Below are positions 58,840 through 61,519 of a stretch of DNA of 64,000 nt, one piece after another. Source of the stretch: Myxococcota bacterium (GTDB taxonomy: Bacteria; Myxococcota_A; UBA796; UBA2385); contig JBIJDH010000026.1 in the NCBI GenBank assembly GCA_044344255.1, positions 32,781 through 96,780 of the forward strand, given 5' to 3'. Each line of letters opens with the position of its first letter. Position 1 is the first letter of the stretch. Made by a program: the position numbers and the translations under genes. The notes below the pieces were generated by a model. That model had not been told where the DNA came from and searched no databases. It saw only the letters and a list, made by a program, of their open reading frames with translations.

Positions 58840-58851
58840 GCGCGGCGAGCC

Positions 58852-59439
58852 TCAGGCCGGGGCGCCGCACCCGCAGGCGCGAGGGCGGGCCTCGATCACC
58901 GCCCCCCGCGGGTCCGTCACCAGCTCACAGCAGGCCTCGAAGGCGGCCCGCATCCGGCGCCGCCCCCGCTGCACGCGGGCCTTCAGCGTGGGGAGCGGGA
59001 CGCCGAGCCGCCGCGCCGCTTCGGCCTGGCGGAGGCCCCCCTGGTCGGTGAGGCGCAGGGCCTCGGCCTGCTCGGGGGGCAGCCCTTCGAGGAAGGGCTC
59101 CAGGCAGGCGGCGAGCAGCGGGCGGAGCAGCGCGTCCTCCGCCTCGGGCTCCTCGGGCCCCGCCGCAGGGTCCTCCACGAGGGCCGCCTGTCGGCGGGCG
59201 GCGGCCGCGGCGCGCCGGTGGTGGTCGATGAGCACGCTCCGCGCCACCCGATAGACCCAGGGGGCGAGGCGGTCCTGCGCCCGCAGCGCGCCCACCCCCT
59301 GGTGGACGCGGAGGAGCGTGTCCTGGACGAGGTCGTCGGCCTCGGGGCCCGCCACCCGAGCCCCGAAGAAGCGGCGCAGCTCCCCTTCGAAGCGCCGGAG
59401 CACGTGCTCGCTGTCGAGGATCGGGTGGGGCGCGGTCAC
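58852..59439 (-). CDS. sigZ: ECF sigma factor, SigZ-like with Cys-rich tail
   Basis: ADDLVQD, WVYRVAR..LIDHHR, CL.PFL..LP, TLKARVQRGR, ACCE...ACGC. Confidence 0.85.
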   Translation of the reverse strand: MTAPHPILDSEHVLRRFEGELRRFFGARVAGPEADDLVQDTLLRVHQGVGALRAQDRLAPWVYRVARSVLIDHHRRAAAAARRQAALVEDPAAGPEEPEAEDALLRPLLAACLEPFLEGLPPEQAEALRLTDQGGLRQAEAARRLGVPLPTLKARVQRGRRRMRAAFEACCELVTDPRGAVIEARPRACGCGAPA

Positions 59440-60236
59440 GGCTTGCAGGCCTCGATGGTGGCCGAGAGCACCTGCTGGGCGGCGGGGTGTCCGGGGGCCC
59501 AGGCCTCGATGATGTCCTGGGAGTCGGACTTCTCGCGGATCTGCACCTCCGTGAAGCCCGCCGCCTGGAGCCAGACCTCCACCTCCGCCACCGAGGCGGC
59601 GCCGCTGATGCAGCCGACGAGCAGGGCCAGCTCGGCCTGGTGCGCCGGGGAGAGGGGCCCTCGGCTGATGACGTCGGCGATGCGGAGCCGCCCGCCCGGC
59701 CTCAGCACCCGATAGGCCTCTCGAAAGACGGCCGCCTTGTCAGGGGAGAGGTTGACCACACAATTCGACAGGATGACATCGACGCTGTCGTCGGCGACCG
59801 GCAAGTGCTCGATCTCTCCCAGCCGGAACTCCACGTTCTTCGCCCCCGCGGTTTCGGCGTTGGCGCGCGCGCGCCGGAGCATGTCGGGGGTCATGTCCAC
59901 CCCGATCACCCGCCCGTCGGGCCCCACGGCCTGGGCGGCGAGCAGCGCGTCGAAGCCGGCGCCGCTGCCCAAGTCGAGCACCACCTCCCCCGGGCGCAGG
60001 GCCGCGATGGCGAGCGGGTTGCCGCACCCGAGGCCGAGGTTGGCCCCCGCCGGCACCGCGGCCTCCTCCGCGGCGCTGTAGCCGAGGCGACGGGCGTCCG
60101 GGCCGGGGCCGGCCGCGGGGGCGGCGGCGGGCGAGCAGCAGGAGGGGGCGCAGCAGGAGGTGCCCTGGCGGGCGATCTCCCCGTAGGCCGTGCGCACCGC
60201 GTCGCGGACCTGATCGGCTGAGCTCGTGGGGTTCAT
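59436..60236 (-). CDS. arsM: Arsenite S-adenosylmethyltransferase
   Basis: SCCAPSCC, LGY, NLGLGCGNP, LDLGSGAGFD, DMTPDM, SNCVVNLSPDK, GCISGA. Confidence 0.92.
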   Translation of the reverse strand: MNPTSSADQVRDAVRTAYGEIARQGTSCCAPSCCSPAAAPAAGPGPDARRLGYSAAEEAAVPAGANLGLGCGNPLAIAALRPGEVVLDLGSGAGFDALLAAQAVGPDGRVIGVDMTPDMLRRARANAETAGAKNVEFRLGEIEHLPVADDSVDVILSNCVVNLSPDKAAVFREAYRVLRPGGRLRIADVISRGPLSPAHQAELALLVGCISGAASVAEVEVWLQAAGFTEVQIREKSDSQDIIEAWAPGHPAAQQVLSATIEACKP

Positions 60237-60277
60237 GGTCGCTCCCGGGCCGGGGGTTGTGCCGGCCTCTACCCTAC

Positions 60278-60304
60278 AGACGCGCCCGCCGTCGGATGGA
60301 TGCA
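60278..60304 (-). promoter_or_regulatory. ECF-type promoter upstream of arsM-sigZ
   Basis: Minus strand TGCATC-N16-CGTCT, about 40 nt upstream of arsM ATG. Confidence 0.6.
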
Positions 60305-60463
60305 GGCGGGGGCCGCCGCCCCGCGCTTCGCCCCCCCCTTCGGGAGGCGCGGTGCTTTCGAGCGATTGCGGGTCTATGCCTGGACGCGGCGCCGGGCCCT
60401 ATAGGAGGGGCGTCGATGATGATTGACGTCCTCGCCGGTCCGAATGGGCCCATTGGAGCCACC

Positions 60464-61519
60464 ATGTCTGCTGCTCGTAACTCCTCTTCTTTTGTCCCCT
60501 CGTTGGCCGTATTTCCCCTCTTGCTCCTGTCCAGCGTCGGGTTGTCCGCGCAGACCGAGGCCGCAAGCGGCCCGGCTTGGAAGTGGGAGACCGGTCACGT
60601 TCGCACCTGGTACCTCGAGAATGACGTGCAGTTGCCGGTGGCGATGACCGTGACCGCGCCCAACAAGGAGGCCCGAATGGGCCGCTTCCAGACCCGAATG
60701 GTCCTCGCTTGTCAGCCGAAGGAGGCTGTCGAGGCGGGAGACTCGCGGCTCACGCTCCGCTGCGACGTGGTCGACGCCTCCATCATCGGCGTGCCCGTCG
60801 AGCAGGACGAGGGGAAGCTCGGCCCCATCCTCGCGCTGCACGGCTCCCTGCTCGAGCAGGCCACGGTGGAGCTCGACATGAAGGAGAACGGCGAGCTCCG
60901 GGGTGTGGCCCTGCGCGACATCCCCAAGGTGGATCGCAGCTCCTCCGAGCGGGCCGAGCAGCTCCGGCTGATCGTGTCGCGGGCCGTGGCCGGCCTCGAC
61001 CTCCAGCTCTCGGAGGGCCCGAGCGAGTGGGTCCAGAAGGAGGTGGCCCTGTCGCGGTACCCCAGCCCCACCGGCACGAACGGACACACCCGACTGACCC
61101 ACCAGGCGGCGCCGGGCCCCGATGACACCCTCGCCATTCGCTCGACCGGGAAGGCGGCCTTCTCGCTGCCCGGGATCGCCTCGCCCAACAACTTTGTCAG
61201 CGCCACCAGCGGCGCTGGCGCGATGATCCGCGCCGACATCGGCAGCGTGGCCCTCTTCGACGAGGCGGGCGGCGCGCTCCGCTCGCGGGTCTGGTGGGTG
61301 AACGGAGAGCTCACCGCCTCGGCCTCCGACGTGGGCGCGGTCTGGGTGCTCGCCGACGGCCGTCCGGCCTGGCGCTCCTACGCCCAGGTGGGGGTGCTCA
61401 CGCTCCTGCCCGATGGCGCCCCGGCCCCCTCCGCCGGGGAGAGCGGGGAGTCGACGCTCCTCGCCTGCGGCGCGGTGGAGCGGGCGGAGCAGGAGGCGAT
61501 GGGCCTCGCGATGCGCTGA
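60464..61519 (+). CDS. Secreted hypothetical protein
   Basis: GGAG RBS, ATG 60464; signal peptide; beta-rich. Confidence 0.65.
   Translation: MSAARNSSSFVPSLAVFPLLLLSSVGLSAQTEAASGPAWKWETGHVRTWYLENDVQLPVAMTVTAPNKEARMGRFQTRMVLACQPKEAVEAGDSRLTLRCDVVDASIIGVPVEQDEGKLGPILALHGSLLEQATVELDMKENGELRGVALRDIPKVDRSSSERAEQLRLIVSRAVAGLDLQLSEGPSEWVQKEVALSRYPSPTGTNGHTRLTHQAAPGPDDTLAIRSTGKAAFSLPGIASPNNFVSATSGAGAMIRADIGSVALFDEAGGALRSRVWWVNGELTASASDVGAVWVLADGRPAWRSYAQVGVLTLLPDGAPAPSAGESGESTLLACGAVERAEQEAMGLAMR

Follow-up and report, generated by a model that had tools for sequence, protein, structure and literature searches.

A SigZ-type ECF sigma factor very probably reads its own promoter in an accessory arsM cassette of a Myxococcota bacterium

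The 64,000-nt stretch of Myxococcota DNA analysed here (the window) carries on its minus strand a two-gene unit in which arsM, an arsenite methyltransferase gene, is followed by the gene of a SigZ-type ECF sigma factor that very probably reads its own TGCATC-N16-CGTCT promoter. Such autoregulation had been proposed in an earlier note on this DNA and is strongly supported by comparison between loci. The case is built from motif enrichment with a fixed spacer, the genes served by the motif, covariation between a sigma residue and a promoter base, the absence of the motif before arsM genes without a linked sigma factor, and the joint loss of all parts in an empty-site allele. By analogy with characterised sigma factors, the chances are about even that a trivalent arsenical gates the protein through its conserved cysteines.

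The arsM gene (59436..60236, minus strand) encodes a protein of 266 residues, which was assigned by alignment and by its score of 334 bits against the curated arsenite methyltransferase family NF008823 (cut-off 263). C28, C29, C71, C159 and C209 are invariant in six of six aligned ArsMs; C71, C159 and C209, together with the N-terminal C28/C29, are taken here as equivalent to the catalytic cysteine set. The gene of the sigma factor (58852..59439, minus strand, 195 residues) overlaps arsM as the earlier note had described, with its GTG start overlapping the arsM TGA stop in a GTGA junction, which suggests coupling of translation. The promoter motif reported before arsM was located at 60304..60278 (minus strand), with a predicted -35 element TGCATC at 60304-60299, a 16-nt spacer and a predicted -10 element CGTCT at 60282-60278. 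This site ends 42 nt ahead of the arsM ATG, and a likely ribosome-binding site, GGGAG (60242..60246, minus strand), is placed 5 nt upstream of the ATG. The unit is bordered by a convergent gene of the alpha-amylase family and by a divergent gene; in agreement with the earlier reading, no ArsR or anti-sigma gene adjoins it, and none of the seven PF01022 matches in the genome lies on the window's contig. The divergent reading frame (60257-61519) has a signal-peptide-like start and belongs to no Pfam or NCBIfam family; its real start is probably near 60446. A search of the unit for a sigma-70 promoter facing arsM or for a terminator found neither, and its ends showed no convincing terminal repeats.

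Promoter, arsM and sigma gene come and go as one unit, which leaves no space for a further regulator. In lake-water contigs from two sequencing runs (X19 and X20) of one freshwater study, an empty-site allele was observed in which position 58841 is joined to position 60331 through 123 other bases, in place of the accessory cassette at 58842..60330. The depths in the two runs were 24.3 and 23.8 for the cassette allele and 22.3 and 28.5 for the empty-site allele. Neither repeats nor a mobility gene accounting for this exchange were found. The amylase gene of one relative is on a different contig from its arsM-sigZ.

Judged by its sequence, the sigma factor is a SigZ/ECF24-type protein, probably of group ECF238, and not a CorE protein. 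It comprises only the sigma-2 (PF04542) and sigma-4 (PF08281) domains, scores 68 bits against TIGR02937 (cut-off 42.9) and gives fold matches to ECF sigma factors, which places it in the ECF class (group 4). Its best families, NF007215 (132 of 212 bits) and TIGR02959 (126 of 168.65 bits), both remain below their cut-offs, and the NCBIfam SigZ equivalog score is not reached; five of five tested relatives from the same tree pass TIGR02959. In our tree, the protein is nested among SigZ proteins and apart from the CorE-like ones, and it ends in the short Cys-containing extension (about 20 residues) that is a trait of the ECF24 branch of ECF238. The CorE-type label of the earlier note is retained only in part. 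The protein is indeed a Cys-tailed ECF sigma factor without an anti-sigma factor, but it falls in the SigZ/ECF24 branch, has a different tail, and is set apart from CorE because the CxC of the linker is missing. No anti-sigma-like family was found beside it or among the recurrent neighbours of 92 loci. ArsM itself was considered as an anti-sigma factor and dropped because the partner gene of the sigma factor varies from lineage to lineage.

Within the window alone, TGCATC-N16-CGTCT occurs at chance level (one match against 0.62 expected). Two sources supplied the first set of loci for comparison: a profile built on 63 homologs, and 154 genomes belonging to the same order, of which 35 had a match and gave 30 loci. 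The set was divided into SigZ-like and other ECF loci, and the window's own locus was left out, as were a duplicate and three loci that were ambiguous. In this set, which is not independent because the choice of A or G was made after viewing some of the same-order loci, TGC[AG]TC-N16-CGTC was observed at 75 of 91 SigZ-like loci (100 sites) and at 5 of 94 other ECF loci, one of which is a misfiled SigZ. At the SigZ-like loci, spacers of 14, 15, 17 and 18 nt gave 6, 7, 6 and 2 sites, compared with 100 for the 16-nt spacer and 4.65 in shuffled sequences. In an independent TIGR02959 set drawn from three other groups, the motif was found at 9 of 14 loci in one group, at 12 of 16 in another and at 11 of 30 in the third (32/60 overall); among the rest of the third group, seven Bacteroidota loci have it with a spacer of 15 nt, and three loci are CorE-like. 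Conservation upstream of homologs, one of the checks that the earlier note had asked for, is borne out in both sets. Six further Bacillales loci carry the motif without exception. When plasmids were searched with a single gammaproteobacterial SigZ, 15 records were returned, none of them from Klebsiella, and the motif was present at two of five loci inspected. Named records of the motif-bearing SigZ family come from about ten phyla.

With a family matrix built from the first locus set, the window site scores 27.2 bits and ranks first among the genome's 1036 candidates, with the runner-up at 22.9 bits. Since all the next sites fall short of it by 4 bits or more, a wider regulon in the same genome was not supported. 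At loci L002, L005, L011, L031, L119 and L120, promoters were observed in overlapping pairs that stand back to back, one per strand and 4-25 nt apart.

At arsM-sigZ loci within the same order, the motif stands before arsM in 16 of 17 cases; at control arsM loci, it does so in 0 of 20 (in 18 of the 80 genomes searched, out of 119 without a SigZ match). The control means "no linked sigma", since the genomes were picked by a single-protein search and a profile search of four of them located a SigZ elsewhere in two. In one genome (G097; L263:1430-1500 and L283:5830), an arsM 73% identical to that of the window still ends in GTGA; sigZ is missing after it, and its promoter survives in decayed form as CGCATC-N16-CGTCC. 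A profile search of this genome returned only a CorE-like sigma factor; it is a single case.

The variable base of the -35 element appears to follow a residue of the recognition helix. When 114 loci with a single base type were compared, the -35 A/G covaried most strongly with the column of Pro150 (codon 58990..58992, minus strand), in the sigma-4 recognition helix. Pro occurs with A (TGCATC) in 24 of 25 cases, all three cases of Ala also go with A, and Ser occurs with G (TGCGTC) in 75 of 82. In an alignment with Mycobacterium tuberculosis SigE, Pro150 falls on the G of that protein's GTVRSR helix, and positions beside this G set -35 specificity (PMC7776599). On a tree of 110 rows, 10 changes of the residue and 13 of the base were counted. 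The Pro/Ser covariation is suggestive only, since phylogenetic control on well-supported branches leaves four independent pairs, 2.7 changing the same way and 0.0 in the opposite way (p 0.25). Two Pro-type sigma factors that were added later both have TGCATC.

The genes behind the promoter lean to methylarsenite handling. At 149 sites, the first gene is arsM (42), arsI/cadI (27), sigZ (23), a DUF2703 gene (18), an ArsP-family PF03773 permease (5), an FAD oxidoreductase (3), PIG-L (2) or another gene (29), and acr3, arsC, arsR and arsH are never found in this position. An ars-type gene is present in 114 of 149 SigZ loci (78/92 and 36/57) compared with 1 of 93 control loci, DUF2703 being counted as ars-type because it is part of an arsenic-induced ars cluster in Rhodococcus (PMC6514093). 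The other 35 SigZ loci have no ars-type gene within the DNA fetched. Of 30 VOC reading frames linked to these loci, 27 keep the CC pair that binds organoarsenicals in ArsI (PMC12607644). Cd and Cu/Zn proteins belong to the ArsI/CadI and PF03773 families as well. In some subclades, the same promoter precedes non-arsenic targets, namely GNAT, PhzF, PAP2, FmdE, HMA-MauE and PIG-L genes. At three Bacillaceae loci (L294:3909-4954, L299 and L300), whose SigZ tail has only the CC pair, it lies upstream of an aldo/keto reductase gene, which we take to be yrpG, and this site is a candidate for the promoter of Bacillus subtilis SigZ. Tiny Cys-rich, metallothionein-like peptides were observed after a second promoter copy at L244:2112-2189, L248:1336-1443, L251:2103-2180 and L296:5688-5864; the copies before flavobacterial Cys-rich peptides have a 15-nt spacer. 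A second SigZ subclade, with an xC...CC tail, was observed within acr3 operons with the promoter before a PF03773 permease (L290 and L291, from genomes G124 and G137). This probably corresponds to the context described for ECF238s2 as "permease and thioredoxin".

The cysteines of the sigma factor are concentrated in its tail (58867..58932, minus strand), which has the pattern ACC-x17-CGC. As the earlier note had reported, the protein ends in ACC...ACGC (...EACCELVTDPRGAVIEARPRACGCGAPA), with C170 and C171 at the start of the pattern and C189 and C191 at its end. A single further cysteine, C112 (codon 59104..59106, minus strand), is located before sigma-4 and, aligned by eye, matches the latter Cys of the CxC in CorE-like proteins. 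Among 149 SigZ-like proteins, C170 is conserved in 134, C171 in 145 and C112 in 110; the remaining 39 have W, Y or another residue at the C112 position. Most of the 149 have two or more distal cysteines. The CxC is absent from all 141 scorable SigZ-like proteins and present in all three CorE-like ones. In the AlphaFold model (mean pLDDT 90), C170-C171 are predicted to end the last helix, followed by a beta-hairpin (171-186); none of the solved structures compared covers the tail. In the freshwater runs, the change in the C189 codon is silent, and the neighbouring codon changes Ala to Val. Loss of C112 was observed at 21 of 37 loci with arsI only and at 10 of 46 with arsM only, a distribution that is clustered on the tree and serves as a lead only.

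These features can be combined into an ArsR-independent positive loop. The sigma factor would bring RNA polymerase to TGCATC-N16-CGTCT, so that arsM and the sigma gene would both be transcribed. With no anti-sigma factor at hand, the brake would have to lie within the sigma protein, which would be poorly active without ligand. Arsenite or methylarsenite might bind C170-C171 together with C112 and/or C189-x-C191 and fix sigma-4 and the hairpin tail in the active form, as suggested by analogy with CorE and by the targets. The loop would then amplify itself until ArsM, by methylating the arsenical onward, removed the signal, and inorganic efflux through acr3 and arsC would remain under ArsR elsewhere in the genome. 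We infer that methylarsenite fits as ligand as well as arsenite does. In ArsR proteins, three cysteines bind As(III) and two bind MAs(III) (PMC11868830). A bolder proposal, doubtful enough to be held only tentatively, is that SigZ-type sigmas are one-component methylarsenite sensors. C170-C171 would bind MAs(III) like the two-Cys sites of ArsI and SpArsR, the organoarsenical arm (arsM, arsI and the ArsP-family permease) would be read from one promoter in about ten phyla, and ArsR would keep the inorganic arm (acr3 and arsC).

A Cys-gated sigma factor at its own promoter could also be a general sensor of thiol-reactive stress, whether from soft metals, electrophiles or oxidation, with arsenic genes as merely the commonest cargo. 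The non-arsenic genes behind the same promoter, from aldo/keto reductase, GNAT, PhzF, PAP2, FmdE, HMA-MauE and PIG-L to the Cys-rich peptides, fit such a sensor, as does the response of the characterised relatives CorE and CorE2 to Cu, Cd and Zn (PMC8999054, PMC4937300). It is nevertheless somewhat doubtful: arsM is the only cargo in the clade of the window's sigma factor, four unrelated arsenic-associated families recur over about ten phyla, metal-efflux ATPases are absent from the recurrent neighbours, and the CxC essential to CorE is missing. That the sigma factor is always active is improbable. The cysteines would then be structural, for example as a zinc site holding the tail hairpin, and arsM would be expressed steadily without sensing; the absence of an encoded inhibitor and the predicted tail fold, which is confident without ligand (pLDDT 85-94 for residues 161-190), would agree with this. 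However, an unbraked loop would hardly need a dedicated sigma factor kept over many phyla, the Cys pattern decides metal specificity in CorE and CorE2 (PMC4937300), and B. subtilis sigZ is nearly without activity or phenotype in ordinary conditions, which fits a missing inducer (PMC7826278).

Control by a distant ArsR, which the earlier note had named as evidence that would count against its proposal, would make the sigma factor a mere supplier of polymerase. The candidate is the ArsR encoded with acr3 and arsC on contig C54, where an ordinary acr3-arsC operon converges on arsR (C54:119679-121700 of the window's own genome, G000); arsH lies apart, at C75:10052-10657. This ArsR is 57-60% identical to the ArsRs encoded divergently upstream of arsM-sigZ in close relatives, and arsR is present in the fetched DNA at 9 of 43 arsM-SigZ loci, which makes dual control possible elsewhere. 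At the other 34 of the 43 loci, no arsR was found in the fetched DNA, many stretches of which are short. The operator-like motif GCGCATATG stands before arsR in four close relatives, and its matrix, a rough one of five rows with one misaligned, scores 15.2 bits before the genome's own acr3 but reaches at best -0.5 within 60237-60460 of the window. The arsM promoter thus has neither an adjacent arsR nor the operator-like motif, and an arsenic response through the C54 ArsR acting in trans is very unlikely at this locus.

The reading preferred here remains a sigma factor that activates arsM and itself. Most ars operons are read as ArsR-repressed, and sigma factors that activate arsM, arsI/cadI and ArsP-family genes would, if confirmed, place arsenic methylation and demethylation under a second mode of control. 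These two processes determine the toxicity of arsenic in water and paddy soil, and methylarsenite is an organoarsenical antibiotic. The motif, the Pro/Ser rule and a short list of ligands make the question of the B. subtilis SigZ promoter and signal testable, and sigma factor and promoter together might serve as a two-part arsenical biosensor. What this locus adds is the empty-site allele, the residue-base rule, the control of arsM genes without a linked sigma factor and the division of targets into organoarsenical and inorganic ones.

Among known systems, B. subtilis SigZ (ECF24, now ECF238) shares with the window's sigma factor the C112 equivalent and the CC-x4-D-x2-G tail (PMC3817407, supplement), and like the ECF24 proteins (TIGR02959, NF007215), the window's protein has no anti-sigma factor. 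It differs from B. subtilis SigZ in being coupled to arsM, in its probable autoregulation and in scoring below the curated SigZ cut-offs. The function and signal of B. subtilis SigZ are described as undetermined, with yrpG as the one suggested target (PMC4105308). The ECF reclassification unites SigZ (ECF24) and CorE2 (ECF44) in ECF238 and proposes metal gating for the group, which it describes as having no conserved promoter and no autoregulation (PMC7826278). In contrast, a conserved promoter was observed here, and sigZ lies in or heads the target operon at many loci. The text of that paper and part of its supplement contain no match to "arsen". The promoter candidate published for ECF24 by Rhodius et al. 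has another -35 element and showed no activation (0.97-fold) by either ECF24 sigma factor (PMC3817407), and the text and searched supplement files of Todor et al. 2020 name no ECF24 or ECF238 regulon (PMC7776599). A link between SigZ and arsenic was not found in the open-access literature that was searched. CorE and CorE2 of Myxococcus xanthus (ECF44) are likewise ECF sigma factors that have C-terminal cysteines and lack an anti-sigma factor, and they are the model of how a thiophilic ligand can activate a sigma factor directly (PMC8999054, PMC4937300). Metals switch them through their tail cysteines, the CxC linker is required, and the Cys pattern sets the metal specificity, whereas the window's sigma factor has C112 alone in place of the CxC, and a different tail. 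ArsR proteins, including the MAs(III)-selective SpArsR and the ArArsR of the Arsenicibacter arsRMC operon, also control arsM and methylarsenite genes through cysteine thiols (PMC11868830). ArsR is a repressor that is released from its operator, whereas the window's sigma factor would activate its own promoter.
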